From contig CAKVHA010000001.1 in assembly GCA_934747775.1 (NCBI GenBank), positions 131,673 through 195,672 on the forward strand: a stretch of DNA of 64,000 nucleotides. Reading direction: 5' to 3'. Origin of the DNA: an uncultured Clostridia bacterium (GTDB lineage Bacteria > Bacillota > Clostridia > Christensenellales > UBA1242). The translations under genes were made by a program, and so were the position numbers. Below the pieces are notes generated by a model. The model ran no database searches, had not been told where the DNA came from, and saw only the letters and a list, made by a program, of their open reading frames with translations. Positions 23,920 to 54,300 of the stretch are shown here, piece by piece. Numbering within the stretch: position 1 is the first letter of the stretch; each line of letters opens with the position of its first letter.

Positions 23920-24606
23920 ATGAAAATTTACGGATTAGAAAAATTGTCTATGGTCGATTTTGGCAAACGCTGCGCGGCTGTTGTTTTTACTGGCGGCTGC
24001 AACTTTAGGTGTCCGTTTTGCCACAACTCTGGGTTGGTGGAAGGCACTGTAACGCCGCTAGACGAAACACAAGTTTTTGAATATTTAAAAAAGCGAAAAG
24101 GTCTTTTAGATGGTATTGTTGTAAGCGGCGGCGAACCTACAATCCAGCCAGACTTGCCTGATTTTATTGCTAAAATCCGCGAAATGGGTTATGCAGTAAA
24201 ACTGGATACAAACGGCACAAATTATGAAATGCTAAAAAGTTTAATAGATCGCAAACTTGTGGACTTTGTGGCTATGGATGTAAAAAATTCCATTTCGGAA
24301 TATCCAGCCACCGTTGGCGTAAAAAACTTTGACCCTACAAACATACTAAAAAGTATAGAGTTGTTAAAGTCGGGAGTAGTGGACTATGAGTTTCGCACAA
24401 CGCTAGTAAACGGGTTGCACACTCTTAAGTCAATAACCAAAATGGCGGATTTGTTGGATGGCGCAAAAGTGTTGTATCTTCAAAAATTTGTGGATAACGG
24501 CACGAACATTAAAGATAATCTTTCCGAAATTCCGCTTGATATTGCTAAAAGCTTTCAAAACATTTTGCAATCACACATATCAAATGTGTATTTGCGCGGA
24601 TATTAA
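23920..24606 (+). CDS. nrdG: Anaerobic RNR activating protein (radical SAM)
   Basis: GGCNFRCPFCHN cluster motif, GIVVSGGEPT, and a ~228-aa size. It lies in the operon with nrdD. Confidence 0.85.
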   Translation: MKIYGLEKLSMVDFGKRCAAVVFTGGCNFRCPFCHNSGLVEGTVTPLDETQVFEYLKKRKGLLDGIVVSGGEPTIQPDLPDFIAKIREMGYAVKLDTNGTNYEMLKSLIDRKLVDFVAMDVKNSISEYPATVGVKNFDPTNILKSIELLKSGVVDYEFRTTLVNGLHTLKSITKMADLLDGAKVLYLQKFVDNGTNIKDNLSEIPLDIAKSFQNILQSHISNVYLRGY

Positions 24607-24794
24607 AATTTTATTGCTTTAAAACGCACAGCTTAGTTGTTGTGTAAAAAGTATAGCTGTTTTGCAAATTGTGAAACAATTATTTTAAAAATAGATTGAT
24701 TTAAAAAAGAAACCTAAAACATAAAACTAACCTTGGTCTTGTTTTAATTTGGGTTTCTTTTTTTGTGGTTATTAAATTAATATAGAATTTATCG

Positions 24795-25307
24795 TTATTT
24801 TATTAGTTCTTGCGTGTGATTTGTTGGAAGTGTTTCCACTGTTTTAAAGTCGTGATGCAACATTTTCATATCCTTATCGAATTTTACATTGCCCAACACT
24901 TTTTTGCCTTCTAGTACTTTTGGAAGCCACAATAAGTCGTCTTCTAACATTCTATCGTAAGGTGGGTTATTGATATCAAACCAGTGCGGAATAATTTCTT
25001 CGGTTTCTTTAATTTGTCCTAAGTATTTGTGGCAAGTGTATATGTACATTTGCATATCTGCGTGTTCGCCTTTGTACCACAAGTCAAAGTTGATTTTTCC
25101 AACTTGTGTGTAGTCGGTGGGTTTTGCACCTATTTCTTCTTCGCATTCTCTTATCATTGCTTGCTCAATTGTTTCACCAGGGTCTTGTTTTCCACCTATG
25201 CCGTTTAGCGTGCCTTTTGCAAAACCGCGTTTTTTCTCTCCAAGTAAAATTTTGTTATCTTTAATAAATAGTGTTAGTGTTGTGTTTATCCTTTTTAAAT
25301 TATCCAT
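24795..25307 (-). CDS. NUDIX hydrolase (MutT-like)
   Basis: Nudix box GIGGKQDPGETIEQAMIRECEEEIG. Confidence 0.85.
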   Translation of the reverse strand: MDNLKRINTTLTLFIKDNKILLGEKKRGFAKGTLNGIGGKQDPGETIEQAMIRECEEEIGAKPTDYTQVGKINFDLWYKGEHADMQMYIYTCHKYLGQIKETEEIIPHWFDINNPPYDRMLEDDLLWLPKVLEGKKVLGNVKFDKDMKMLHHDFKTVETLPTNHTQELIK

Positions 25308-25720
25308 ATATTTCTCCTAAAAAAAATTTGTTTAAGCTGTTAAAAATTAACCTCCTTATTTAAATAGCAAAAATAACACAGCCAAATTATAATTTGCAGT
25401 ATTTTTTTTGCCATTCTTAAGAACTTAATCTTCTTTACTTAAACAAACGGAATGGGCGAATATTTGTACCCTTATATTACAACACCTTACCTAAATTGTC
25501 AATACTAAATTTTTATAAAGGCTTTTAAAAAAACAAATACTTAATTATATTAAGAAATAAAAAATCACTATCAAAACTAGTGATTTTTTGTTGTGGTGCA
25601 CCACCTACGATGTAAGTTGAACCGAAAGGTTTGATTTACGTTATTTCCTTTGCGAAAAAATAAGGGGCAGAACAATTATGCCTGCTTTATTATGTTTGAT
25701 GTTATTATTTTTAAAAGGTT

Positions 25721-25888
25721 TTAATTCCCCCAAATCACGATTTTTCTCGCTATATCATCACACTTATTATCAATCTTTTTTAATTCTAAAACTATTTCTA
25801 TTAAAAGTTCTTTTTCGGATAGGTTGATCAATCTCTCTCTTTTGTCCTGCTCTTTTAAAACATTTCTATTAATTAATTTTTTAAACAT
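25721..25888 (-). CDS. Small hydrophilic protein (55 aa), absent from the ORF track
   Basis: An AAGGTGG RBS lies 6 nt before ATG 25888, and the gene starts 19 nt downstream of the stop of the HTH gene. My translation is MFKKLINRNVLKEQDKRERLINLSEKELLIEIVLELKKIDNKCDDIARKIVIWGN. Confidence 0.45.
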   Translation of the reverse strand: MFKKLINRNVLKEQDKRERLINLSEKELLIEIVLELKKIDNKCDDIARKIVIWGN

Positions 25889-25907
25889 AATGTACCACCT
25901 TGTATTT

Positions 25908-26996
25908 TTAATAATGGTTGAATGAAGGTAATTCTTTAATTAACTTTTCAATATCACTATCTTTTACAGTGCTATCATTAACAATGATTACACATTCATA
26001 GAAATCATTATCTTTAGAACTCTTAACTCCACCTAATTCATTGCATACATAACAGGAACTCTTATCAATTTTAGTTGCTATTTTTTTATTATAGCTAATT
26101 CCAAAGTTTAAAATTTCTGACGCTTGTGCTTTATATTTGTCTAAGTGTTTTAAAGCATAGTCTAAACAGTTGTTTAATATCGGGTTTATTGAATAATAAG
26201 TTAATATGTCCGTTTTTAGTTTTCTTTTAGCAATGCTTCCTAAATTTAAATCGTATTTTTTAATCTTGAATAAAGAAGCAAATATGTTTTTATTATCCAA
26301 CAGTATTTCTAAATAGTCGGGCGAATAAAATATTGAATTCGTACCACCATAATGCCCGTTAGTAAAAAACATATTATAAGAATCATATATGTCATTAAAC
26401 AGTTCGGCATCGCCCATACTTGCAACAAGCCTTGCAAATCCGATAGCGTTTTCAAAATTGCACCAAGTTATTCCTTTTTCTTTCTTGAAATCGAAATGAT
26501 TATAATGCCATTTTAATGAAATTCCGTATTCGTCGTGCAAATATCTAACACCATTTACTGCTTGGTACTCAACAACATAATCCAGAAAAGTTTTCCCAAA
26601 TTCGTCGGTGTTATTCATTATAGATTTACCGTCTTTCGCTAATAATTTATCAAATTCTTCTATATACAAATCGGGATTATCTAAATACGTATAATACCTA
26701 AACCCTTTATTAAACGGCACATTTTCTTTTTCAACGGGAAGTTTATAGGCATTCTCGTCTAACATTCTGGCTAAAGAAACACCAAATATTTTTTCTAATG
26801 GAACTATAAATTCATATTTGAGCGGCCTTTGTTCTTTTAGCATTTTTGAGAAATTTGATTTTTCTTTTTCGGCAAATATATATGCTTCCTTTCTGTTAAT
26901 ACCTAACTGATGTGCTATATCAATTAGAAGGTGGCTATACATCTTGATACCTTTTAATTGCATATATCGGTCTATGTTTTTCTTTAAATTACTCAT
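25908..26996 (-). CDS. HTH (XRE-like) domain protein with a ~280-aa C-terminal domain of unknown type
   Basis: A GGAG RBS precedes ATG 26996; the ORF-track start at 27080 lacks one. The N-terminus (NIDRYMQLKGIKMYSHLLIDIAHQLGI...IVPLEKIFGVSLARML) is Cro/C1-like. The remainder is not recognisable and may be a helical-repeat or ankyrin-like domain. Confidence 0.65.
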   Translation of the reverse strand: MSNLKKNIDRYMQLKGIKMYSHLLIDIAHQLGINRKEAYIFAEKEKSNFSKMLKEQRPLKYEFIVPLEKIFGVSLARMLDENAYKLPVEKENVPFNKGFRYYTYLDNPDLYIEEFDKLLAKDGKSIMNNTDEFGKTFLDYVVEYQAVNGVRYLHDEYGISLKWHYNHFDFKKEKGITWCNFENAIGFARLVASMGDAELFNDIYDSYNMFFTNGHYGGTNSIFYSPDYLEILLDNKNIFASLFKIKKYDLNLGSIAKRKLKTDILTYYSINPILNNCLDYALKHLDKYKAQASEILNFGISYNKKIATKIDKSSCYVCNELGGVKSSKDNDFYECVIIVNDSTVKDSDIEKLIKELPSFNHY

Positions 26997-27072
26997 CGTA
27001 CAATCTCCAAATATGTTTAAATTTATTTTCACATAAAGTATAGCACATACTTGGAGCGATTTCAAACATTTT

Positions 27073-27090
27073 GTTGTCATTTAAGACAAC
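27073..27090. promoter_or_regulatory. Perfect palindrome GTTGTC-ATTTAA-GACAAC upstream of the HTH gene promoter
   Basis: 6-bp arms with a 6-bp spacer. It lies just upstream of a minus-strand TGcTATACT extended -10 (27037-45). ATATGAC(A/C) also recurs, at about 27119 and 27145. Confidence 0.35.
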
Positions 27091-27204
27091 TTTTGTGGTC
27101 TTTTTTGACTGTACTAAAAAATATGACCCTTGAGAAAACAGTCAAATATGACAACTTATTTAAAAATTATTCAAAGACAAGTGTAGATAAAAAGCAAGTG
27201 GGAA

Positions 27205-27235
27205 AAGAAAGAACACATTTGTTCTTTCTTTTTTC
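27205..27235. terminator. Hairpin terminator between the protease and HTH transcription units
   Basis: aagaaagaac-acattt-gttctttctt followed by tttttc. The T-run is stronger on the + strand, and the reverse complement is followed only by cttttcc. Confidence 0.45.
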
Positions 27236-27299
27236 TGATATTATGTTTCATTTTATCTTGTTGTCAAGCACCTTTCACGGCATAAACCGCCACTTTGCT

Positions 27300-27479
27300 T
27301 TACTGAATTTTTATTTCTTTTTGATCATCTTGCTGATCTATTGGTTCCTGAAGATTTACAATTAGTATATTGTTCTGCATTAATTGAAATAAAGTATTTG
27401 GAATTGCTGAACTACTCGCATTAAGAAAATTAATACTATTTGCAACATTTGAATTGAATATTGTTTTATTTTGTAGCAT
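27300..27479 (-). CDS. Possible small protein (59 aa) overlapping the protease stop
   Basis: ATG 27479 is preceded by AAGGATGGG and overlaps the last 14 nt of the protease gene. Peptide: MLQNKTIFNSNVANSINFLNASSSAIPNTLFQLMQNNILIVNLQEPIDQQDDQKEIKIQ. The composition is AT-driven, so it could be spurious. Confidence 0.3.
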   Translation of the reverse strand: MLQNKTIFNSNVANSINFLNASSSAIPNTLFQLMQNNILIVNLQEPIDQQDDQKEIKIQ

Positions 27480-28464
27480 CTTTTTCCCATCCTTCAAAAA
27501 TTCGATTATCATTAATTTGCTGATTTGGAACTCCTGTTTGATACACAATTTTTTGTAGAGTACCCTTAGAAACATAACGCTCTCTACCATATGTTATACT
27601 ATCCAAAATTACTCTAATATATTCATATGTTTTACTTTGTGTTTGTGCCAATTCAAGAACTGGATTGTATGGAGTTTTCAATAACATCTCATCGCTAATT
27701 AAATCGTACCATTTATTTATTAATGTGTTAAGATCATCATTGACTAATTCAACATTAAGCCCTAGTTGTTTTGCTTCTTTAAAACTTATTGTGTAATCAT
27801 GACTACCAGAATCACTACATAAAAAACTAACAATTTTATTTCTCTGTTTTTTTGAACAATTTTGATACATTAGAAGTTTTTGAGCAATCATTTTTATTTG
27901 TCCCTGTCTTCTATAAACATCTCCAATTAAAAGTGGATTAAGAGTTTCTGATAATTTGATAAATGCGTTAATTAAATCTCTTGAGTTTTTTATGTGCAAT
28001 TCCTTTTTTGCTAAATTAAAATATCCCTTAACTGATTCAACACTTGTTGGAAGAGTTATTGTTTGTCCATTAATATTTACCTTTGTTCCCAATGGACTGT
28101 TTAAAGATGGGTCTATTGGTCCTAAAGTAGACTGATGTGTTAGAATAATTTTATTTGCTCCTAAACACATTATTGTGCCAGAACTTCTTGCTTTTCTAGG
28201 AACTATAATTTCTAATTCATCACAATATTCTCTGATTAGATTAACTATATTCCATGTTGCCATTGTGTCACCACCAAGTGTATATAAAATCAACGTAATT
28301 TTGTTAACCTTTCCTATTGATTCCAAATGTTTGCCAAATATATCAACAACATCTGCACCAATTTGTGTTTCCATATTTAATCTATCACCAGTTACATAAG
28401 CTATTACTTTGGAACTTCTTAATTTTTCAATTTCTTTATAAATATCTACCAATTTCTTTTGCAT
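27466..28464 (-). CDS. SDH-family (ClpP/SppA-fold) serine protease
   Basis: AGGAG RBS. The motifs ITLILYTLGGD...IIVPRKARSSGTIMCLGANKIILTHQSTLGPIDP match the serine dehydrogenase proteinase / Clp-fold pattern (catalytic Ser in SSGT). Confidence 0.7.
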   Translation of the reverse strand: MQKKLVDIYKEIEKLRSSKVIAYVTGDRLNMETQIGADVVDIFGKHLESIGKVNKITLILYTLGGDTMATWNIVNLIREYCDELEIIVPRKARSSGTIMCLGANKIILTHQSTLGPIDPSLNSPLGTKVNINGQTITLPTSVESVKGYFNLAKKELHIKNSRDLINAFIKLSETLNPLLIGDVYRRQGQIKMIAQKLLMYQNCSKKQRNKIVSFLCSDSGSHDYTISFKEAKQLGLNVELVNDDLNTLINKWYDLISDEMLLKTPYNPVLELAQTQSKTYEYIRVILDSITYGRERYVSKGTLQKIVYQTGVPNQQINDNRIFEGWEKDATK

Positions 28465-28523
28465 AAAAACTCCTAATTAATTGTATATATTTTAACATAA
28501 AATTTTAAAACAATCAATTATAC

Positions 28524-28574
28524 ATCAAAAAAAGTCTAAACCAAATACTTAAATTAAGTACTTGATTTAGACTT
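28524..28574 (-). terminator. Long hairpin terminator downstream of tRNA-Leu
   Basis: aagtctaaaccaaatactt-aaatt-aagtacttgatttagactt. On the minus strand it is followed by a T-run. Confidence 0.65.
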
Positions 28575-28578
28575 TGAG

Positions 28579-28664
28579 TGGTGCCGAAGGTGGGGGTCGA
28601 ACCCACATGAAGTTGCCCTCGCAAGATTTTGAGTCTTGTGCGTCTGCCATTCCGCCACTTCGGC
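28579..28664 (-). tRNA. tRNA-Leu (anticodon CAA)
   Basis: Reverse complement: GCCGAAG/TG/GCGGAATGGCAGACGC/A/CAAGA-CT[CAA]AA-TCTTG/long variable arm/GTGGG-TTCGACC-CCCAC/CTTCGGC-A-CCA. Confidence 0.9.
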
Positions 28665-28932
28665 ATATTTTATTAAGTAAAACGCAAAATTGTTTTTAAT
28701 TTTTGCAGTGATAGTATAAATCATTTTTAAGGCTATGTCAAGAAAAAAAGTAAACTTTGAATTTAAAAAAATTAAAGCAAAAAGTTTGGTTGAAATTTAT
28801 GATTGTGCTATACTTAGTTGTACATAGTTAGTAACTGCGTTTTTGCTTTTTTAGTATGGTTTTAAAAACGGCAGTTTTCCATTTGCCGCAATGCGAAAAC
28901 GCGGTTGCGATTAGTACAAAAAGGAGATTATT

Positions 28933-30117
28933 TTGAGAGCAGTAGGAACAAGCGTGTACGGGGTTAGAACTCCAATAATTAGAAAAGGAAACAATCTGGT
29001 TGATATTGTTTGTAAAAGCGTAGATGCGGTTTTGAATGAACAAAACCTAACACTAAAACCCACCGACGTGGTGGCGGTGACCGAAGCAGTTGTTGCAATA
29101 AGCCAAGGAAACTACGCCAGCGTGGACGATATTAGTGCCGATGTTAGGAAAAAAACTGGCGGCGGAAAGGTGGGGCTAATATTTCCAATACTTTCCAGAA
29201 ACCGCTTTTCGACATTGCTAAGCGGAATTGTTGGCGGCGTGGACGAGCTTATTATTCAGCTATCGTACCCAAACGACGAAGTTGGAAATCCGCTTGTTTC
29301 TGTAGATAGATTGTATGAGCTTGGCATAACCAATTTTAACCGCACATTTACTAGCGACGAGTTTTACAAACTTGTGGGCACAGTGGAACATCCTTTTACA
29401 GGTATGGATTATATTAAATACTATTTAGATTTATGCGGCGGAAAAGCAAAAATAATTTTGTCAAACGACCCAACCACAATTTTAAATTACACCGATAAGG
29501 TTATTAATGCCGACATTCATTCCAGAGCGCGTACCAAAAAACTTTTGCTAAATAAAGGCGCAAAAGTTGTGTGTTTGCTATCGGACTTTTTAAACGCTCC
29601 AAGCAAAACCCACGGCTTTAACGAAAGTTTTGGCTTGCTTGGCAGTAATAAATCTAAAGACGGCATTGTAAAACTTTTCCCACGTGATTGCGACAAATTT
29701 GTGGCAGCGCTTCAAGCGGAGTTTAAAAAGCGCACAGGTGTAATACCGCAATGTATGGTGTATGGCGACGGCGCGTTTAAAGACCCAGTTGGCGGAATTT
29801 GGGAACTTGCCGACCCAGTTGTTAGCCCAGCTTTTTCTAGCGGACTAAACGGAACGCCAAACGAGATAAAACTAAAATATGTTGCCGATAACGACCTAAA
29901 CGGCTGCACAAAAGACGGCGAAATAGAACAAAAAATGCGCGAGATTATTTTAAATAAAAACAAGGATTTAAAAAATCAAAACATCTCGCTTGGCACAACG
30001 CCGCGACGAATAACCGACCTGCTTGGTTCGCTTAGCGACCTTACAAGCGGCAGCGGCGACAAGGGTACGCCAGTGGTTTTAATTAAAGGCTACTTTGATA
30101 ATTACGCGACTGAATAA
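28933..30117 (+). CDS. F420-0:gamma-glutamyl ligase (CofE)-like family protein
   Basis: TTG start 7 nt after AAGGAG. N-terminus: GVRTPIIRKGNNLVDIV...LKPTDVVAVTEAVVAISQGN, resembling the CofE-like fold. The function in a non-F420 organism is unknown. Confidence 0.5.
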   Translation: MRAVGTSVYGVRTPIIRKGNNLVDIVCKSVDAVLNEQNLTLKPTDVVAVTEAVVAISQGNYASVDDISADVRKKTGGGKVGLIFPILSRNRFSTLLSGIVGGVDELIIQLSYPNDEVGNPLVSVDRLYELGITNFNRTFTSDEFYKLVGTVEHPFTGMDYIKYYLDLCGGKAKIILSNDPTTILNYTDKVINADIHSRARTKKLLLNKGAKVVCLLSDFLNAPSKTHGFNESFGLLGSNKSKDGIVKLFPRDCDKFVAALQAEFKKRTGVIPQCMVYGDGAFKDPVGGIWELADPVVSPAFSSGLNGTPNEIKLKYVADNDLNGCTKDGEIEQKMREIILNKNKDLKNQNISLGTTPRRITDLLGSLSDLTSGSGDKGTPVVLIKGYFDNYATE

Positions 30118-42301: not shown

Positions 42302-45300
42302 ATGAAAAAAGGAAAAAAATTATTCTCATACATTCTAATCGCATTAAGCGCCGTTTTTTGCATAGGCTCGCTTAACCTATCCCCAAAATCCCGCGTTAGT
42401 GCTGATGGCGATGTTATTTATAAAACATATGAGACAAGCGCTTTGAGAGAAGGCGATTTTATCGAGTTTGGCGAATATCCGCAAAGAAAAGTTGCAGAAT
42501 TGAGTAATGAGGATATTAATACGCTTAACCAATCGGCTAATTTCGACACAGAAGATCGTTCGGGCTATTATGTTGCAAAAACAACCCAAAAACTAGGCTC
42601 CAACATAGCTGGAACGGATAGTAATGGAAACAATATTATCGCTGGTCATAAATACCATTTGTTTACTGTTAATGGTAGTTATGGGGAAAAATATCCAGCA
42701 GAAGCCATTATTGATAAACCTTCAAGTGGTGGATATACTTATAGAAAGATGGAAGATGCTGCTGGTGTTAACGGCACCTTAGACCCAAGAAAGTATGTAA
42801 TAGATCATTTTAATTCTGATGATCATTATGCTCAAGCGTATCAATCATCAAATAATGGCTACATTACTTCAAAGACTTATTTGTTTGAAGTACAACCTTT
42901 AACTTGGAAAGTTGTAAAAGCTAATTCCGACGTTTATACTTTGGTTTGTACATCGGTTATTGATGCTATGGACTTCAACTTGTATGATAGTAACGGCTCT
43001 ATGTGGGCGTATAGTTATGTTAGAAACTATTTAAATAATGATAGCCGTGGTAAATATCCTATCTTAGTTAGAATAAATAATGACTCGGATGGTAATCTAC
43101 AAAAGTATCGCGGTAATTCTAAATTGGATGAAAGAACTTATTTAAACTGGCTTGACTACGGAGATAGTTCTGTTCAAATAGGAAGTGGAGCAAAACCGGT
43201 ATGGATAGGAGAAGACGGGTGGTGGATTTTTACTACTAATTATTATACAGCTAATTCGACCGAAAATTCCAGAAACTCCAAACTTATAGATGCTTCTACC
43301 TTACAAGGTGATCGTAAGGGCTTTATTGACAAGGCTTTTAGCAAACAAGAAAAAGATCTTTTGCAAACAAGCAGTACTGAAAGTCGAGGCACGAGTCCAA
43401 GTAAAAATTATGAGATAGATAAGATTACGGTAAATGATAAAGTAAAACTTGTTGGTGTAAACAATTTAAAATCATCAAACTTTATATTGAATAACGGAAA
43501 ATATTACTCGGACTATGCTGCAGCTAATGGTTTTGTTTATAATTTTAATAATAGTACTTCTTTGACTACGTATAACAACGGGAGAAAAACTGGAAATTCT
43601 AGCGATCATAAATATGGTTATATTTGGACTTTGGGTAGTGATGGTTCGTCGGATGCTGGCAAGCAGTTTTCAACAGATTGGTATGAAGATTATTTTTGTA
43701 CTGTACACAATGTAAGAGATGTTGCACAAATTAATTTATCCAATGCTTCTATTACAAATATTAATGCTTATAATAATTTAGATAAAGAAGGTACGAAAGA
43801 GTCATATTTAAAGAAGAATGCATATAGTGTAAATAGTATGGATCAGTCTTATGGTATTGTTCCACAAATTGAAATAAAGTTAACAAAAGACAATCAATAT
43901 TTGATTGACAAAGTAAATACGGCAACACCAAACGAAGAATACTCAAATGACGGTTCTATGGCTGCAAATAGAAATTTTGCTGTTGGTGTTTATGATAAAG
44001 ACACAAATTTGAATGTTTCAGTTTCATATAATAAAGTTACACAAGCAGTAAATACAACTGCAAATGGAAGTACTTACACATACACAATAACAGGTTATGT
44101 TAGCGGCTCTAACATTGATATGAAAGAGTACTTTTATAGATTTTCTTTAGCTACTGAAACACCAACTGCAGCAAATGTTGTTTATTCCTATGCAACTATT
44201 GGTGAAGAGACTAGTAATGGGTATCCTTTTACGGTAAAACTAACATGGGATAAAGAGCCAAATAGAAATACAGAACTTTCATGTTTTATGGTTTCTAAAG
44301 ATATGAAAACTATGTATAAAGTAGAGAATGTAAAGAGTGGTTCTTTAAGTAATTTGTATAGGGAAGTAATTTTTAAAGAAATAGAATTAAGTGATACATT
44401 GGATGAAAATAACAAACCGATTGTATTAGAAAAAGTGATCAGAACCATTCCGCTATATTATGGTATGTCATTTGATTTGCCTGAATTAGGTGGGGTGTCT
44501 GGTAGTGTAGCAAATTACTGGTTTGCAGATAAAGATAAAGCAGTAGCTTATATAGAAAACGCAGCACCAAATCCAGAGGGTGCAAAATCTGGAACGATTG
44601 ATAGTGGTAATGGTTTATATCCTAACGATGCTACTGTTACATTTTATTGTGCAGCTGGTGAATTAAAATATAGTGTTAAAGTTGATAGTGCAAGCAGTAG
44701 TTCCGGCAAGACATTTAATGGTCATTATTATTTAATGAACCTTAATAATAAACAAGCCATTTATCCGCAACAAAATAGTATGGAGATTTTGAATAAAGAC
44801 CTTAGCACATCTTATTCTACATATAGTTTTAAAGTAGTTATAAAATATCCTTATGTTAAAGGTTATGCAAGCACTTTCTTAACAGAAACTAATGGTGTGC
44901 TTGGCTTTAAATTAGATGAAAACGAAAAACCTTTACTATACAACAATTTAAAAATATATGTTGGCGAAACTGTTAGTGATGAAGGTTTACTAGGAACAAC
45001 CAAAACCACTGATGGAAGCAAAGCTTATTACGAAATTTCTGGTTTTGGTTACACTAAATTTAATGATACCAGTACAAATAAGGAATTATATTTTAATGTA
45101 TTAATTAATGATATAAGTGGAGCTTATGGTGCTAAAAACTTCCTAGTTTCGTTTACAGAAACAAAAGATTCTGAAGACTCATATAGTATTGAATTTGATA
45201 CTGCTGCTTATAACGACACTAACAATGACCATATTTATTTCAAAAATGGTGAAAGTGAAAAGGATTATAGCAAAAAAATAGATGGCATTGGATATGGAAC

Positions 45301-48300
45301 ATCTAAATCGGTGGATTTAGCATTTGATGCTGGTTATTATCTAAAATCAGGTTACAAAAATGCCGCTGGTGAATTACAAAAAGAACGAACATCTTCTTCA
45401 GATGTATTTGGATATTATGTTCCACGAATGGATTTCACATATTCTGGACTAGTACTTGATGCTAATGGATATAGATATGCAGACGATCCAAATGCTAAAT
45501 ATGGCTCAGGCACTGGTGTTTTTGCTGGTCAAAGAGTAAGAATAGATAAAACTGGTGCTGGGATTTCATTTGATGAATATGGCAACCGTAGTTATACATA
45601 TGGTAATGCTACTGCTACAAAAACAGATTATGGTTATAAATTAGAAGACGATAATAAATTTGTAGGCGTATATACTTTAAAATTTAGCTATAGTGGTTCA
45701 GCAAACAATGAACTAGTATTTGACTTGACAAAAATTGGTTCTGGAATTGAGCAGATTACAATTGGAGAGGGTGATAATACTGTATCCGTATATAGAGGAT
45801 TCTTTACAACTGATGGCGCAGGTGCTGATGGGGTTACGAAATGGACTTTAGTAGATACAAATACAACCAATGCAAAAGTTTTTGGTATTGCCCTAGAAAA
45901 TTATGACAAAGTTAGACTATATATAAGCAATGATGAAAACAATTTAGCAGCTAGCAATAGTGTTGCCGCACCTATATCTACATTTACAGATATTTATTCA
46001 ACTGAAGGTGAAGGCAATAGCGCAAGATCGTTAAAAGTAAATGTTAAGTATGCAATAAAAACACCATCTGGCGAATATCAGAAGGTAATAGATAATAATG
46101 GTAATCCAGGTGGGTTGACATACTTAGAACATGATATCTCAACATTATATGGTTATAAGGGTAAATTATACAGTATAATTCCTGGTACAACTTCTGAAGG
46201 AAGTGTGAAAGCTGATGATGTTTATTTGACTGTTGTTAGTACTGGAAAAACATATAGACCTTGGCTTGAACATGTTAATAATATTAATGCAAACGTGGCA
46301 GGAGCAGATAGTAACAGATTTAAATCCTTAGCGTTAAATGCAACAAATGTTACTACTGCAACTACAGGTGTTACTTCTAATAACCCTAAATATTGGGAAG
46401 GCAGTAAAGTATGGTTTGTAACAAATGGTAGCGAAACCCAACAGGTTGTTCAATATACTAATGGTAAACCAGTTAATCCAAAAACTGGTACAGTTATTGA
46501 TATTGATAATGACAAGTTTAGAAGTTCATACATTATGGAATTAGATAATAATTGGACTTTGTTCTCTATTGACGCAATAGATGTTACAATTGTTTACGAT
46601 ACAACAAACAACGACATTCAAATTAACTACACATTCGATTATGTTGCCAGTGATATTAAATTTGGTTTTGTTGGTGTATCAACATATGACTACGCTATTC
46701 AATTTGTATCTAAAATAAATGAAACTGATGTTGTTGGTGTAGTTGGATATGTTAACCAAGGTACTGGATTCCAAGATTCGTCAAAAATTGGCTCATTAAG
46801 TAATTTGGGTTCAAAAACAGCTTTGATTAGCGAAATTGGTAAAAACAACATAAAAACATATCTTACTGGCGATGTTATAAGTTCAACTAGTGAGATTGAT
46901 GCTAACGTAACAATATTTGTTCCTATTATTGCTAATAACGGCGGAACATCAACTCCTTATTACCATGTTCCAAAATGGACTAATATTGATAAGACTTACA
47001 CAACAAAAATTGAAAATACAATTTATAAAGTTTATAAGTTAACACAAAGCAGTACAGAAAAAGATAATTACATTTACATTTTGGTACTAGAAGGTACTGA
47101 TCCTGGCGTAAGCAATTTCTTAGGTGGTGCTAATGAGATTGTGGGATACAAGTTTAATAATAGTGATTACTATAATATATATACAGATAACACTAAAACA
47201 ACAAAAATAAAAATGGGAACTGGTGAAAATGCTGGTAAAATCGTTTATACAGATTCAGAAGGCATGTCAACAGTTAGTGATAAAACATATTTAACTGCTG
47301 ATGAAATTAAAAATTTATACTTTGAATTTAAAGCAAGCAATGCAACAATTAAATTTTATGCTGTATATGAAACTTGTACTGTAAACGTTTCAGTTTCTGG
47401 CTGGCAAAAAGAAGATGATACTACAGATCCTGCAGTTCCAGAATTCTACGACTTGATTGCTGCTACAAGCAATGACGAAAAGAGTAAGTTTGATTTCTCT
47501 CCTGCTGGATATAGCATAAAAAATGTTAAATTTGCTACTGAATCAAACATTGATTTTGGAACATTAGGTCTTAACACTATTGCTCTTAATAATGGCAACA
47601 CAAAACCTTATGTTACAGGTTTAATTGGTTATTTTAGAAAAACGGCTTACGATGCTAATGACAACATTATTCAAGTGGAAGGCAGTGGATACAAAGTTAG
47701 TTCGGGGCTTGAAATGCAATACATTAATGGTCAAGCAATGTATTACAAGCAAACACCTGAAGGTATTAAAAAATATTATGCTGTTAAGGTTAATAGTGAA
47801 GGCTATGTAGAAAACATTTATACTTACAAATTGGTTGAGGCCGACACGAAGTTTATGCGCACAAATGTTGAGCTATACACTTTGTTTGGAATTAACCATT
47901 ATGAAGTGGTGGCAACGGTTGTTGGCGATACACAATCGGCCGCTATTGAGCAAGCATCGGTTCCACAAGACCTAATGATTGGTACGCTTACTGGAACAAA
48001 TGTGGAAATTATCTATAAAATGAATAGGTCTTATACACAATCTGTTCCGCTAATTTCAGTAAAAGACGGCGCAAATAGTTATCTACAAATTGGCAACCTA
48101 AACGAAACTAAAAACGGCTACACAGCAGTTAGCGTTGACGAAAACGGCAAGGTTGATTTTGGTGTTGACGGCGATTACGTTGTTGAGTACATCGAAAGTG
48201 CTAATGTATATAAGGTTATTATTGATGCTCAAAAATTTACTAGCAACCTAACCGCATCTCTTGGTTCGGTTAACAACGGAAAAATTGAAGGCAACGGTCA

Positions 48301-51300
48301 AGAATTTGTAATCAACAAATACAATGTAAGCTTTACAGTTCCTGCCGAAAGCGACACAAATATGGACAACGTAGGCGACTTTGAGTATGGTGAAGCAAGC
48401 GGTATGGACAGTGTAGTTCACAACGGACAAGCAATACTAACATTTAAGTTGGGCAAAGCTTATGATTACAAAAAGCTACAATTTGCTATTTGGGCAAGCA
48501 AAGACACAACCGTAAATGGCAGTCAATTAGAACCAGAAAATGTAGTAAATATAGTATCTCTAGATTCGTTACAAGGTGGCAGCGGAAGTACAAAAATATC
48601 TGTTAACGGTGAAGAAATTACTGTCACAATTAACTATGATGCAACCGTAGGCCAATACACATTTACGATTACATCGGTTACTCACGCTGTTAGTGTTCAT
48701 TTGGAAAAAATAGACAGCAGTAGCAATGCTCTTAAAACATTCACATACACTGTTGATTATGACCATAATATTAAAGGTTCTGATTCCAACAACTTGGCTT
48801 ATACTGTTTACAAGAGTGTAGTAGAAACAAATGGCACAGGAGAAGTAAACACTAAAAAATATACCTTAAACTACAATACTAGCCTAAGATATACAATTGA
48901 TGTTGCAGAAGGTTATAGTCAATCTACTCCTATGTTTGTACTATCTGGAAAGGGTGTTGTAAGATATTTTGTTCCAGTTTGGTTGTTTGGAGAGCAAAAC
49001 ACTACCATTACATTATTAGGCGATAATTGCGATATTAGTTACAATAACACTAGTGGCGAGTATACTTACAGACACAGCGGTATGACTTATACTGTTAGTT
49101 GTGTAAAAGGTGCCGCTGCTACAGGAACTAAACCAGCTGAACCTGATAAGTGGACTTACACTGTTACAAGCGGAACAAATGTTGAAACATACATTGTTAA
49201 AATTGGTCAAAACAGACAATATAGTCTTACAATGAACGCAGAAAAAGATTGGGAATATCTATATGCCGCTGTGTACAGACTTGTGGACACTGACAAAACG
49301 ACCATAACAACTGGTAAAGAGAAAAATCCCAACTTTTACCAACAATCATTTAAAGAAAACTCTTTTGATGATACAAAAATTACTGCAACCATAGAAAAAG
49401 GCAATGTTGCATATGGTTCGGCAAACACAATTACGTACACTGTAAAAGGTGGCTATTCACACAACTTGCCAGTTATCACAATAAATGGCGTACCATACTA
49501 TATCCCTAATATGGGCGATAGAAATGTGTTTGGCGAAACAAATGAAAGTTATGGGTTGGTTAAAGAAAGTTCTAATAAGTGGACTTATGAATACAAAGTA
49601 GGCGAAGAAGTAAAAGCCACATACTATGTTACGGCAAGTACTTCTGATGGACAATATGTATTTAATTACTACACAACAATAAATGAAATTAATGTTAAGA
49701 TATTAACATTAACTATTGATGTAAAAAATAAAGAAAACACTGTTGTTAGCACAGATACAAAATATGTAACTGCAGCCGACGGCACAACGGTAGTTGTTAC
49801 ATCAAAAGATAGATTCCAAGGCGATATTACATATACTTATAGCGTTCTACAATTCTATACAGATAATATTGAGTTGTCTGAAGCGGAAAACAAAAACACA
49901 TTTGCTGAAAACAAATATTTAGTTGTTTTGTCAAAACGTGTTTTGGAAGGCATTACTGGCAATAGCTTTAAATACAAAGGTCAAGGCGATATGAAAGACG
50001 CCAGCGATAACACATTTGTAATTATTGTTGGGAAAGATGCAACTAACGGATACAAATTTATGGATCCATTAGCAACAAACACCGAAATCACAAAACAAGA
50101 AGGTTACTACTATAATAGCTATGTTTGGACAGATGCTAATAGCACTCAAGGTACTGTGATTAAGGATCTTACCCTTATTAGAAAATTAGGCGAAGCATTA
50201 ACTCATTTGCCAGATGAAAATAGCACTTGGGAAAGCGAAGGTGTAACATATAAATATTATGAAAACAAAGGTGTAATTGATAAAACTATACTTGCTGTTG
50301 AACAAAATGGTGTTACTACGAATAAGTACAAATTTACTAAACAATGGGGTTCTTCTGTTAGTGATAATAATGGTGTATCGTTTAACAGTAGCGGATTAAC
50401 TAGCAGTGAAATAACAGGACACATTCAGTTGTTTGCAACATTCTGTGAAAATGCTTACAGAGTAAAAGTGGGCAACTTGCCTACAGCTACAGGCACTTAT
50501 GCAAAATTTGGTGCGTTGTTCACTACTATAAAGGGTGGTACTTCTGAAGAGGCTAGTTCGGCAACTTCAGAACTAATGAGCTTCACAAAAACCAAAAACT
50601 TGACCTTATCTTACAGAGTTTATGCTGCTTACGATCAAACCGAACCTGTATTTAACCTTGTAGGTTTGTATGGAGACATAGTATTGTTAATGCCAAAAAC
50701 AATTGGCTATGAAGATGCTGCGGTTACATATCAATATCAAAAGCAAGATGGTGTTGCATATACCGTTACCGTAATTAGAGATGCTAGCAACAGTAACAAA
50801 TACACATATTCTGTTACTGCAAACGGCAAGGAAGTTTCATTTACACTTACAATTACTAAGAGCAATATAAACAGAGTAGGCGCAAGTCAAATATCTATAA
50901 ATTACCAGATTGTATTTAATAATGAGTTTATGGGATTAAACAACGCCGACGAAGTTGTTGTTAACATCTACCCAGCTACACATTACGAAGAAAACGATGC
51001 AGTGGTGAAAAACATTAATGAAGTTTCTAATACTAATAGCGCATACAATGTTTCAAATATTGAAAACAATTTAACACTAAATAGATACGCCATTAATTAC
51101 TACGATATGTTGTTGGAAAACAAAGCAGTAATTAGTAAAACAGCATTTGGCAATGACGCTTTATTTGACGGCATTCTTGCGTTGTATAACAATATTAACA
51201 ATACAGAAGAAGCTACAGTTGGTTCTATAGAACTAACTAAAGTTACTGTTTCTAATAAAAAATATATTATCTGCCAAAATGGTGGCACAACAACATATTA

Positions 51301-54300
51301 CACCAATGTTACAGCTGTAGGATTAAACGAATTAATCCCTGGCAAAAATATTGATTCTACTTATGAAAACACAAACTTTGACACAACAACATTCTACATT
51401 ACTGGCAAAACTGGTACTAAGAAAATAGTTCACGGTGAAAACTATGTAGACCAAGTTAAAGCTACTTCAATTAATGCTGTTCGTGGTTACGACAGTATGA
51501 ATGGCACAAACTATTGTTGGTCAGACGGTAAAAACGAAATCACTACAGGTAGTGCAAACTTATATGACAATATGGTTGTTTACCCAGTTTATAAAGAAAA
51601 AGGTGTAACAATAAACTTTGGCAGTACAGTATATCTAGTAGGCGACAATACATTAGACTTTAATCAAAGTCCTAATCAATTTGCAAAAGTAAGTGGTCCT
51701 AGCACTAGCACATCTGTTAAATTTACACAAGAAAGAACATTTACTGTTACTGTTAATGAAATATATAGTAAAACAGAAATTGATTTCAGTATTGCTGGTG
51801 ACTCTAATGCAATTGTTAAAGTATCTTATGTAGATAATTCTACAGCTAATGGTATGCAAAAGGTTTATACTGTTAAAGTATCCTATGTTTACTCTACAGA
51901 AAGCCTACTTCTTAAGATTTCTGCTAAAAACGCAAAGATTACAACTAACAACTACCAAGTTATTTTGATTACCCCTACTAAGTTTGAGTATGCAACTCAA
52001 GCTGGTGTAAAAGAAGCTGGCGCATCAATTGCGGCGGAGATTTTAGGAGAAACTAATTCAGTTACAATTGTACACGGCAGTAAAGTAAGCACAACCGATG
52101 CTGCTAATTCTGCATTGTTAAGTAAGTCTAATGGAATTAGCCTTGAAGGTTGGACATTCGCAGGCTGGTATGTTCCTAGAAACTGGTCGCAATATGCTGA
52201 CATTGTAAATAAATATCTAAATGAAAACAAAGACAGTATTTTAGATTCTACTTTATTTAACAATATTAAAGATGGCTTTGGTACAATTACGACCAACACA
52301 TCTACTACTGGTTACAGTAGATTTGCTACATTAGGTACAAACGCATTAGTTTATACTGGTGAAACAGCAATTACACACGATACTATTTTAATTGCGGGCT
52401 TTACTCGTAATCAAATACAAGTTAAAATTTACAATACTGTACAAGAAAACGACTACTTTGGCTTTATTGATAAAGCAAGCAATATTGTGAATAAAGACGC
52501 ATTAACTCAAGGTAGCGATTACCTTGTAAAAACCATTCCTTACGGAACATTTATAGCAAGTCCTTATGATGAAATGACTAACGCTCGTATTGTTCCTGCA
52601 ACTGAAGCATTTACTAGAAACACAACAGAAAATGAGTGTTTCTATTTAGATAATAAAGGTGAATCAACTACATTTACTCCTACATCTAAAATAATTAAAG
52701 AAGATATCGAAATTTATGTTGGTTATACAAGAAAAGCATTTACTATAAATTTTGAGTATAAAGATAGCAGCGGTAGCACACAAAGAATTACTATAGAAAA
52801 TGTTAAGTACGGCACAAAAATATCCAATATTGACAATGAAGAATTAAAGACAATTATTGATCCAAAAACAAAGAAACTAATTAATAAGTCGGCACCAGAA
52901 ACTGGTAAACACTTTGTTAGATGGATTTATCAAACAACAATAGTTGATGAAAATTATGTTGTAACAAGAACTGCAACTTTTAGCGAAGTGTTTGATTACA
53001 ATCAATTTAAGATCAGCTTTGACACAACTAATATTGACAGCATTGTTTACAATGTTGGTGATACCGTAGGTTCTGCTAATATTAACGAAGTTCAATGGGT
53101 TGACAACAAACTTGTATTGGGTTACAACAAAGCATTAGTGCTTGCATTAAATCCTTCTACAGGTTATGGCAAAGGTGGCAATTATACTGCCAAACTTACC
53201 TTTAACGGCAACAAGGTTGATTTGGATGATACTAAGCTTATAATTGGAAACGACGGAACAATAACTATTATGCAAGGTGTGCTTGGCAATTCTGAGTATG
53301 TAGACGGCGCTGAATTTACACTAGTAATTGAAGCTAATATTAACAACTATTCTGTTACGATTGCTGGCGACAACTCAATAGTATGTGAAGGCAAAACCTA
53401 TAATAAGGACGGTAATGCTTGGTTCTATCAAGATGATAATACTAATCCTGTAATTAAAATCACAGCAGCAAATGCGGACTACAATACTGATTTCATTATG
53501 ACAGTTAGTGTTTTCAGATCTTATAATCAAAAGAGCGTGTTTGTGTTTAAGGTTTACAATGGTAATAACAGCGAAGATTATAGAATAGTTACTGTTGATA
53601 ATAGTAACCTTATGACACTATCGGAAGACCATAATCGTTTTATAGGAACAATTAACCTAGGTGTAGCAACTGATGATCTTACTGTTGAATTGGTTTCTAA
53701 AATAGACGACAAAGAAACTAAGATTATTAATAACGACTACTATATTAAATTTGTTGTTAAAATTGGTAATGACAAAAATGGCTGGAAAGAAGAGTTGTTA
53801 ACTGGCACCGGTTATGTGGGTATTATGGCTAGCGAAGGCAATAATCATAAAATTGAAAAAGCTATAATTCCTAGCGCTGCAGACCTTAGCGTAGAACGCA
53901 CAACTGATCCAAGCTGGTGCGAAATGATTAGCAATGGCTGGCTGATGAAGAAAGGCGGCGGCGTATTTACAGCCGAAGAGTGGAATGCTATTGACTGGAC
54001 TAATATGAACACAATCTTAGAAAGTGCTTATATTGGCGATGCTACTACATCTATAGAGTTTACAAAAGATACTACATTGTACATTGTATATATGATTAAA
54101 ACCATCGATGTAGAAGTTACTCCTGTTTCTGATGATGTTAAAACAAAAGGCAGCTTTAGTGCTCCTGAAACAGCTAACAAGCGTGACCCAGAAGCAAAAA
54201 CAACCGTTGGTTTTGGCGAATATACATTTACATACACTGTAGGTGTTAAATACAGCAAAAATATTCCTGTAATTGATATTGGTGGCAAAAAATTAGTAAT

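Follow-up and report, generated by a model that had tools for sequence, protein, structure and literature searches.

A 64,000-nucleotide (nt) stretch of genome from an uncultured Clostridia bacterium (contig CAKVHA010000001.1; referred to here as the window) contains an AT-rich islet at the 3' end of its tRNA-Leu(CAA) gene. The islet was acquired horizontally and has a foreign composition, and its two slots hold unrelated, independently mobile two-gene modules: a ClpP-fold serine protease with a partner of 59 amino acids (aa) in slot 1, and a helix-turn-helix (HTH) protein of 362 aa (HTH-362) with a 55-aa partner in slot 2. Our preferred reading, held with moderate confidence, is that the islet as a whole represents a horizontally acquired two-slot cassette array at tRNA-Leu(CAA) carrying two unrelated two-gene modules. 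The alternative occupants of the two-slot site are mostly restriction and defence genes. The architecture of the islet is well supported, and we infer an anti-phage or toxin-antitoxin-like role of either pair from its neighbourhood only. Both cassettes are uncharacterised, and their content is uncatalogued in the libraries that were searched.

Boundaries and two-slot organization of the islet

An earlier note, made by reading the sequence of the window, had described an AT-rich islet at 25330-28578, with four minus-strand open reading frames (ORFs) of 332, 59, 362 and 55 aa, which abutted the 3' end of the tRNA gene and lacked an integrase or phage structural gene. Most of this description was borne out. 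The tRNA-Leu(CAA) gene occupies 28579-28664 on the minus strand (ARAGORN; Rfam tRNA, 57.4 bits), the four ORFs are as described, and no integrase, recombinase, phage structural gene or domain of these kinds was found in 25594-28574 by the ORF list or Pfam. The guanine-plus-cytosine (GC) content of the islet is 28.4%, against approximately 36.8% in each flank and a window mean of 34.8% (standard deviation 2.2), which makes it the lowest of 611 sliding 3-kb windows along the 64 kb. The GC content at third codon positions (GC3) was 0.15 for the protease gene and 0.27 for the HTH gene, compared with 0.34-0.41 for the flanking housekeeping genes. The span had to be corrected: after the limits were refined by homology to related loci, only 25594-28574 (2,981 bp) was retained as foreign, with its tRNA-side limit, 28574, lying 4 nt past the CCA end of the tRNA. 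The part at 25330-25593 is probably native, because it holds a hairpin with a T-run that is likely the displaced tRNA terminator, followed by the NUDIX promoter and leader.

The four genes had also been proposed to form one functional module, and this part of the proposal did not survive. Altogether 301 loci were fetched, among which L030 is the window's own; 89 carry a relative of the protease and 91 one of the HTH protein, and the two sets overlap in L030 only, so the four genes are not one conserved system. An alignment scan for the HTH gene across 185,579 species-representative genomes gave 93 matching stretches, and the protease gene lay within 6 kb of the HTH gene in none of the best 80 loci kept, which come from many families of gut Clostridia and Erysipelotrichaceae. 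Each pair separately recurs elsewhere in nearly identical form without the other. Failure to co-occur in other places, which the earlier note had named as grounds for refutation, therefore applies to the combination but not to either pair by itself. The DNA of 28574-27204, with the protease and 59-aa genes, is 98% identical in six contigs (L008-L013; blastn) in which the downstream slot carries other cargo: an Mrr-type nuclease with a 194-aa gene; a methylase with ThaI; a C-protein with EcoRV and a methylase; a 751-aa metallophosphatase; or an HTH_3 protein with a DEDDh exonuclease. Conversely, the DNA of 27294-25594, with the HTH and 55-aa genes, is 95.6% identical in L007, a contig without the protease. 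Alternatives to the slot 1 pair found elsewhere encode 78 plus 33 aa, approximately 73-99 aa, 266 aa and 247 aa. Altogether, at least five cassettes in slot 1 and six in slot 2 alternate between the same short conserved sequences, and this alternation between the same conserved ends therefore points to repeated exchange. The cassettes are found in either orientation, each with promoters of its own, and a resolvase adjoins the module in L013 only. Read outward from the tRNA, the islet consists of an end hairpin, slot 1, a junction of approximately 90 nt, slot 2 and the end palindrome TGGTGCACCA.

The tRNA-proximal end is formed by a 20-bp hairpin (28531-28575, minus strand; AAGTCTAAATC...GGTTTAGACTT) that is followed by a T-run, has a folding energy of -23.6 kcal/mol (z = -8.5) and probably terminates the tRNA transcript. 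The same end hairpin recurs behind a tRNA CCA in L007 (tRNA-Arg(tcg)), L274 (tRNA-Arg(tct)) and L195 (tRNA-Leu(caa)), and in L008, L013, L185 and L196 it follows GGTGCACCA-like pseudo-sites. The 4-nt spacers in front of it are variable. The other two tRNAs of the window are followed by unrelated terminators. A pattern scan of metagenomes for the end hairpin gave 119 matches, most of them by chance and 4 of them genuine. At the equivalent tRNA-Leu(tag) site of L008-L013 the content is variable: in L008-L011, four different cargos start right after the tRNA-Leu(tag) CCA, three of them with a related CTAAATC...GATTTAG hairpin, and in L008 and L010 the whole island, 3.85 kb long, lies between direct repeats of 21 nt that correspond to the 3' end of this tRNA.

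The distal end (25594-25642, minus strand) comprises a hairpin at 25609-25642 and then ...TAGG TGGTGCACCA. This 10-bp palindrome, at 25594-25603, occurs once in the 64 kb; its last 6 nt copy a tRNA 3' end (GCACCA), and the homology to L007 and L032 ends exactly there. Just outside the islet, a further hairpin with a T-run (25555-25589, minus strand) was read from sequence and fold. It is probably the original tRNA-Leu terminator, which would have been displaced by 3 kb.

A separate feature accompanies the protease module in two of the related contigs. Just upstream of the protease module, at 5704-5850 of L008 and 4552-4690 of L013, the 3' end of tRNA-Leu(tag) is present as a 21-nt copy, followed by approximately 120 nt of GC-rich sequence; in L008 the same terminator stands on either side of the stretch. 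No significant Rfam match was obtained over 3800-6400 of L013, which includes the GC-rich element.

The junction between the slots (27204-27294, minus strand) is a conserved sequence of approximately 90 nt with a promoter-like TTGACA-16-CATAAT at 27267-27240 and, at 27231-27203, a hairpin of 13 bp. Its mean column identity is 82% in seven loci with five different upstream and several different downstream cassettes, and the 106-nt fold has an energy of -27.8 kcal/mol (z = -4.0). The earlier note had labelled this structure a hairpin terminator; the hairpin is real, and the terminator role is presumptive because a clean U-tract is missing. Over 24000-30000 of the window, which includes the junction, Rfam returned tRNA only. 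As a side observation, a palindromic segment of approximately 45 nt on the 3' side of the junction in L008 (7325-7372) is inverted relative to that of L009-L013. Cassettes may move through homologous exchange between the conserved sequences of the ends and the junction, or alternatively through a recombinase acting in trans at GCACCA-type sites.

The array resembles two known kinds of variable locus. Defence hotspots have reportedly been described in P2/P4 elements (Rousset et al. 2022) and in E. coli (Hochhauser et al. 2023). The islet is like tRNA/phage defence hotspots in its fixed site at a tRNA 3' end, where alternative small systems replace one another, in its atypical composition, and in having restriction-modification (R-M) and IetAS genes as neighbours. 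It is unlike them in lacking an integrase or a phage/satellite backbone and in having two slots in series; hotspots are bounded by core genes, whereas the units of the islet are bounded by a hairpin of approximately 45 nt, the 90-nt junction and the 10-bp palindrome. With integron arrays it shares serial, small, exchangeable cassettes, mostly of one or two genes, split by structured non-coding elements. However, the islet has no IntI integrase or attI, its cassettes bring promoters of their own and may face either way, and its junction is conserved in sequence (82% in seven loci), whereas integron attC sites are conserved in structure only.

The protease pair of slot 1

The first gene of slot 1 (27466-28464, minus strand) encodes a 332-aa SDH-type ClpP-fold serine protease. 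A consensus scan placed a promoter-like site, TTGATT-17-TAAAAT with a TG, at 28489-28517 on the minus strand, upstream of the gene. The protein passed the gathering score of Pfam PF01972 SDH_protease (59.9 bits against 31.3) and matched phrog_11747 (2e-57), a PHROG family without known function. It scored 73.8 bits against NCBIfam NF047768 Clp_like_SDH, far below the equivalog cutoff of 250, and is a distant subfamily, not the named equivalog. The AlphaFold 2 (AF2) model (pLDDT 84.7, pTM 0.81) resembles ClpP over the first ~240 residues, to which a C-terminal beta domain of ~90 residues is added. The best Protein Data Bank (PDB) matches by Foldseek were ClpP structures, with a target-normalised template modelling (TM) score of ~0.6 and E = 1e-4. 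Ser94 and the motif SDSGSHDY are invariant in 18 homologues that are 50-82% identical, and the protein is presumably active as a protease. The family has 2,635 detectable homologues, with identical copies in many contigs. The slot 1 protease thus shares with the ClpP, SppA, NfeD and prohead proteases a ClpP/crotonase-like fold and a conserved nucleophile-like serine, and one of its clades, in which the pair follows a Band_7/SPFH gene, recalls the NfeD proteases of stomatin operons. It differs from all of these in its ~90-residue C-terminal beta domain, in the invariant SDSGSHDY, in its coupled partner of 55-85 aa, and in its accessory, phage and defence-island contexts.

The second gene of slot 1 (27300-27479, minus strand) overlaps the protease gene by 14 nt and encodes a Ser/Asn-rich protein of 59 aa, which appears in the ORF listing as 96 aa from an upstream ATG. 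Its own ATG lies 14 nt inside the protease gene, and the two genes are therefore translationally coupled. In all gut clades that were examined, with proteases 51-99% identical to that of the window, the protease gene has a gene of 56-70 aa overlapping its 3' end or directly adjoining it, and a small partner with a shared motif follows the protease gene in 48 of the 51 viral loci. These partners are Ser/Thr/Asn-rich and conform to a loose motif (...V/Y..., SSSAP-like, L..LM.N..I.V). The small protein may be a substrate or a regulator of the protease.

The pair extends from gut Clostridia to E. coli lambdoid prophages, and several of its neighbourhoods bear on a possible function. Its usual place is next to R-M or IetAS genes, or between phage genes as an antisense 'moron'. 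In the L014-L021 / L294-L298 set, it lies 28-30 nt after an operon of a methylase and HinfI, or after an operon of a C-protein, a methylase and a NotI-like enzyme, in each case on the same strand. That two unrelated R-M operons each precede the pair hints at a functional link with restriction. Elsewhere the pair is located ~1 kb from IetA/IetS. In E. coli lambdoid prophages it is antisense between the antiterminator gene Q and the holin/endolysin/spanin genes; DNA matching this prophage pair was detected in 214 of 5,426 complete genomes (~4%), 47 of which contain most of the query, and the only annotation of the copies is 'SDH family Clp fold serine proteinase'. A literature search found no paper on the SDH/PF01972 protease family in defence. 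The pair might act in phage exclusion or abortive infection, or might modulate the neighbouring restriction systems. Judging from these contexts, it would most likely be an autonomous accessory pair with a phage-exclusion or restriction-linked role.

HTH-362 and its partners in slot 2

HTH-362 (25908-26996, minus strand), the first product of slot 2, combines an N-terminal XRE/Cro-type HTH with a domain of ~280 aa. A 390-aa version of the ORF begins at an upstream ATG that lies inside the promoter. This promoter-like site (27037-27065, minus strand; TTGAAA-17-TATACT with an extended -10) was found by consensus scan, and its position is conserved in relatives. Just upstream of it are three operator-like GTC-N6-GAC palindromes on the minus strand, at 27141-27155, 27098-27109 and 27073-27090. 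The form GTTGTC-N6-GACnAC is present in 62 of 78 HTH loci, and in nearly all of these its distance to the start codon is 66-95 nt; the background rate is 0.0007 per 200 nt. A second site lies ~62 nt further upstream. The exact operator palindrome occurs once in the window. Because conserved GTC-N6-GAC palindromes are located upstream of a conserved promoter of its own, these data support HTH-362 as a putative autoregulating DNA-binding protein. The XRE-HTH part would bind the GTC-N6-GAC operators at its own promoter.

The family comprises 686 close homologues by a word-indexed search (237 clusters at 50% identity), none of them named. Searches for HTH-362 on plasmids and phages gave no plasmid match and one viral contig. 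The earlier note had considered the content of the islet unrecognised, and this was upheld: Pfam and NCBIfam recognise only the protease fold, HTH-362 and both small ORFs match nothing in Pfam, NCBIfam or PADLOC and gave only weak repressor matches in PHROG, and a PDB sequence-profile search returned no match. In the AF2 model of HTH-362 (pLDDT 82), which has several beta strands, residues 1 to ~75 superpose on Cro/CI-type repressors; the Lactococcus phage AM9 repressor matches the N-terminus with a target TM score of 0.72 and a root-mean-square deviation (rmsd) of 3.1 A. The C-terminal part of ~280 residues had no convincing structure match in PDB or BFVD, where only the HTH was matched, and the best match of the whole protein was PrgX (E = 0.012, TM 0.14-0.18). 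Longer relatives of 575-608 aa (P0400-P0421 in the representative library) have an extra C-terminal region, which in P0411 is an APH/RIO kinase-like domain. A 580-aa HTH_3 protein of L009, considered as another long relative, showed no homology by BLASTP.

The second gene of slot 2 (25721-25888, minus strand) starts 19 nt past the HTH stop codon and encodes a basic helical protein of 55 aa ending in ...CDDIARKIVIWGN. No signal or hydrophobic segment was found in this protein (maximum Kyte-Doolittle value over 15 aa, 1.2). Intact homologues with 51-95% identity directly follow the HTH gene in the loci of 13 relatives. A terminator-like short GC hairpin with a T-run was read from the sequence after this ORF (25655-25686, minus strand), and its fold is weak (-6.5 kcal/mol, z = -1.4). 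The sole recurrent neighbour of HTH-362 is its next downstream gene, which varies in type: the 55-aa family (12-14 loci by different methods), an acidic family of 59 aa (18-26 loci, likewise), an acidic 52-aa family (2 loci), two families of zinc-ribbon membrane proteins, a DUF6548 protein, or a 213-aa nucleotidyltransferase-like protein with a weak match (7e-4) to the cyclase of the cyclic oligonucleotide-based antiphage signalling system (CBASS). The partner types are partly clade-specific, and two of them are intermixed among close relatives. The small partner would be co-transcribed with HTH-362, which may serve as a repressor or sensor that controls or neutralises a variable effector in a toxin-antitoxin-like manner. 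The HTH-362/55-aa pair has a bicistronic layout and operator-like sites; as a candidate type II toxin-antitoxin pair, it would have one toxic and one neutralising product.

Two of these layouts were observed in particular. The 213-aa nucleotidyltransferase-like gene lies 3' of HTH-362 in six loci (L076, L077, L079, L080, L082 and L092), and in at least four of them a gene for a 249-aa zinc-ribbon membrane protein comes next, a layout reminiscent of a minimal cyclase-plus-effector pair. In an Oscillospiraceae genome (L001-L006), an islet of three genes, HTH-362, a zinc-ribbon membrane protein gene and TnpV, lies between HPr and UvrC; no recombinase was found in it.

In its layout, HTH-362 comes closest to RmrA, PanA and similar genes, which encode promiscuous antitoxins or regulators with an HTH. 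RosmerTA and Panacea (PanA) are described as 'hyperpromiscuous' antitoxins (PMC10440598), in which one conserved, often HTH-bearing gene of ~360-400 aa is combined with many unrelated partners, including small and membrane proteins, in a mobile, defence-linked setting. HTH-362 was not filed with RmrA or PanA, because the domains that define them are absent: Pfam and alignment revealed no ImmA/M78 peptidase, Panacea (DUF4065) domain or HExxH. HTH-362 also had no RmrA match in PADLOC, whereas the unrelated 580-aa HTH protein of L009 had one.

Origin and possible roles of the array

The idea that all four genes form one system, in which the protease would cleave the HTH repressor as in CapP/CapH or ImmA/ImmR, can appeal to their adjacency, common strand and shared foreign composition, and also to the protease-HTH regulatory pairs that are established in defence and mobile elements; those of the ImmA/ImmR type are discussed in PMC10440598. 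However, the 89 protease and 91 HTH loci show no co-occurrence outside L030, each pair has a promoter-like site of its own, the junction between them also separates unrelated cassettes, and GC3 differs (0.15 vs 0.27). By its distribution such a system is largely refuted, and we regard it as the least probable of the explanations weighed here. Alternatively, the array might consist of eroded integrase-borne tRNA islands, with the hairpin, the junction and the GCACCA motifs as inherited leftovers. The 21-nt tRNA-Leu(tag) direct repeat of L008 and L010 is a classic integrase signature, which together with the lack of a recombinase in the islet and the restriction of an adjoining resolvase to L013 fits this explanation. 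It is nevertheless unlikely, given that one and the same end hairpin recurs, behind variable 4-nt spacers, downstream of the CCA in three different tRNA genes and also at several pseudo-sites, and that at least five slot 1 and six slot 2 cassettes alternate between the same short conserved sequences.

Two further explanations concern the individual modules. Slot 2 might be a quorum-sensing pair of the RRNPP type (PrgX, Rgg, PlcR, AimR), with HTH-362 as the receptor and the 55-aa ORF as a pro-peptide from whose C-terminus a mature signal would feed back on the operators. The arrangement is suggestive of this: the XRE-type HTH is N-terminal, a small ORF lies 19 nt 3' of the regulator gene, palindromic boxes occur at the regulator's own promoter, the best whole-protein structure matches were PrgX, NrpR, Rgg and PlcR, and three unrelated small-partner families have a hydrophobic-x-x-Trp near the C-terminus (IVIWSD, ISGWSN, YVYNWD). 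Membership in RRNPP was rejected because none of the structure matches reaches significance (E = 0.012 or worse, TM 0.14-0.19, rmsd ~18 A). Moreover, the model of HTH-362 contains beta strands, whereas RRNPP receptors are all-helical; its C-terminal domain has no recognisable superhelix like that of tetratricopeptide repeats (TPRs), no TPR match was found in Pfam and no AimR-like match in BFVD, neither a signal nor a hydrophobic export segment was found in the partners, and in many relatives the partner is a membrane or nucleotidyltransferase-like protein of 200-250 aa. Such a pair is thus quite improbable. We consider it very improbable that the islet is a prophage remnant without current function and its protease a decayed head-maturation (prohead) protease of a phage. 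The protein does weakly match ClpP-related head-maturation models (NF045542, 4.9e-6; phrog_1684, 2.6e-4), and its gene directly follows the large terminase in four viral loci, with the portal next in two. Nevertheless, the NF045542 score is 26.6 bits against a cutoff of 120, the window contains no structural genes, the best PHROG family of the protease has no known function, and the gene is an intact, highly conserved one that has 2,635 homologues and a conserved coupled partner. The E. coli prophage copies are found at a distance from the head genes, in antisense orientation between Q and the lysis genes, and chromosomal copies occur among restriction genes with no capsid gene nearby.

Several observations weigh against our preferred reading of a horizontally acquired two-slot array, or against a defence role for its modules. 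No empty tRNA-Leu/NUDIX site was found: in the search for relatives the exact NUDIX protein of the window was carried only by the same strain, the next-nearest relatives were at most 79% identical, and the two relative contexts that were examined (NUDIX 78%) were not syntenic. The direct repeat at the islet ends in the window is only 7 nt long (GCACCAC) and lies inside TGGTGCACCA, which is weak evidence on its own. The terminase-adjacent copies of the protease pair (L132, L140, L141 and L146), two of which have the portal gene next, could reflect a morphogenetic role, and the protease context of L299 contains no recognisable defence gene. A search of PADLOC-DB v2 gave no match at E <= 0.1 for any of the four products. 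The defence role is presumed from guilt by association, and R-M genes are common neighbours of much else. The identity of HTH-362 stays at 65-70% regardless of the partner, and close relatives have two intermixed partner types; a variable cargo slot accounts for this pattern no less than a physical interaction does.

A bolder extension is that both pairs represent undescribed anti-phage systems in an integrase-free array, of a kind not recognised before, that targets GCACCA tRNA ends and shuffles its cassettes through the end hairpin, the 90-nt junction and the TGGTGCACCA palindrome, with the protease working together with its micro-protein and HTH-362 as a sensor or repressor of a new fold with exchangeable effectors; we put this forward tentatively, as possible though doubtful. 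If the protease and its micro-protein are indeed a defence or exclusion module, they would constitute a widespread one that is absent from the PADLOC catalogue searched. Copies of this pair are many in gut Firmicutes, and the E. coli prophage version allows direct testing in E. coli. As a compact model, HTH-362 combines a conserved regulator, swappable partners and a defined operator. The architecture of the array suggests how very small defence cassettes may move without a recombinase of their own, which is a question for many integrase-less defence islets.

Two minor features lie outside the islet. A near-consensus promoter, TTGACA-17-TAATAT (25502-25474, minus strand), is located ~165 nt 5' of the NUDIX start codon; the NUDIX gene thus has a long leader, which contains a hairpin and matches no Rfam family. 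The one match to CTAAATC...GATTTAG in the window, at 45303, was dismissed as a chance match inside a giant single open reading frame of 4,241 aa at 42302-55027 on the plus strand.

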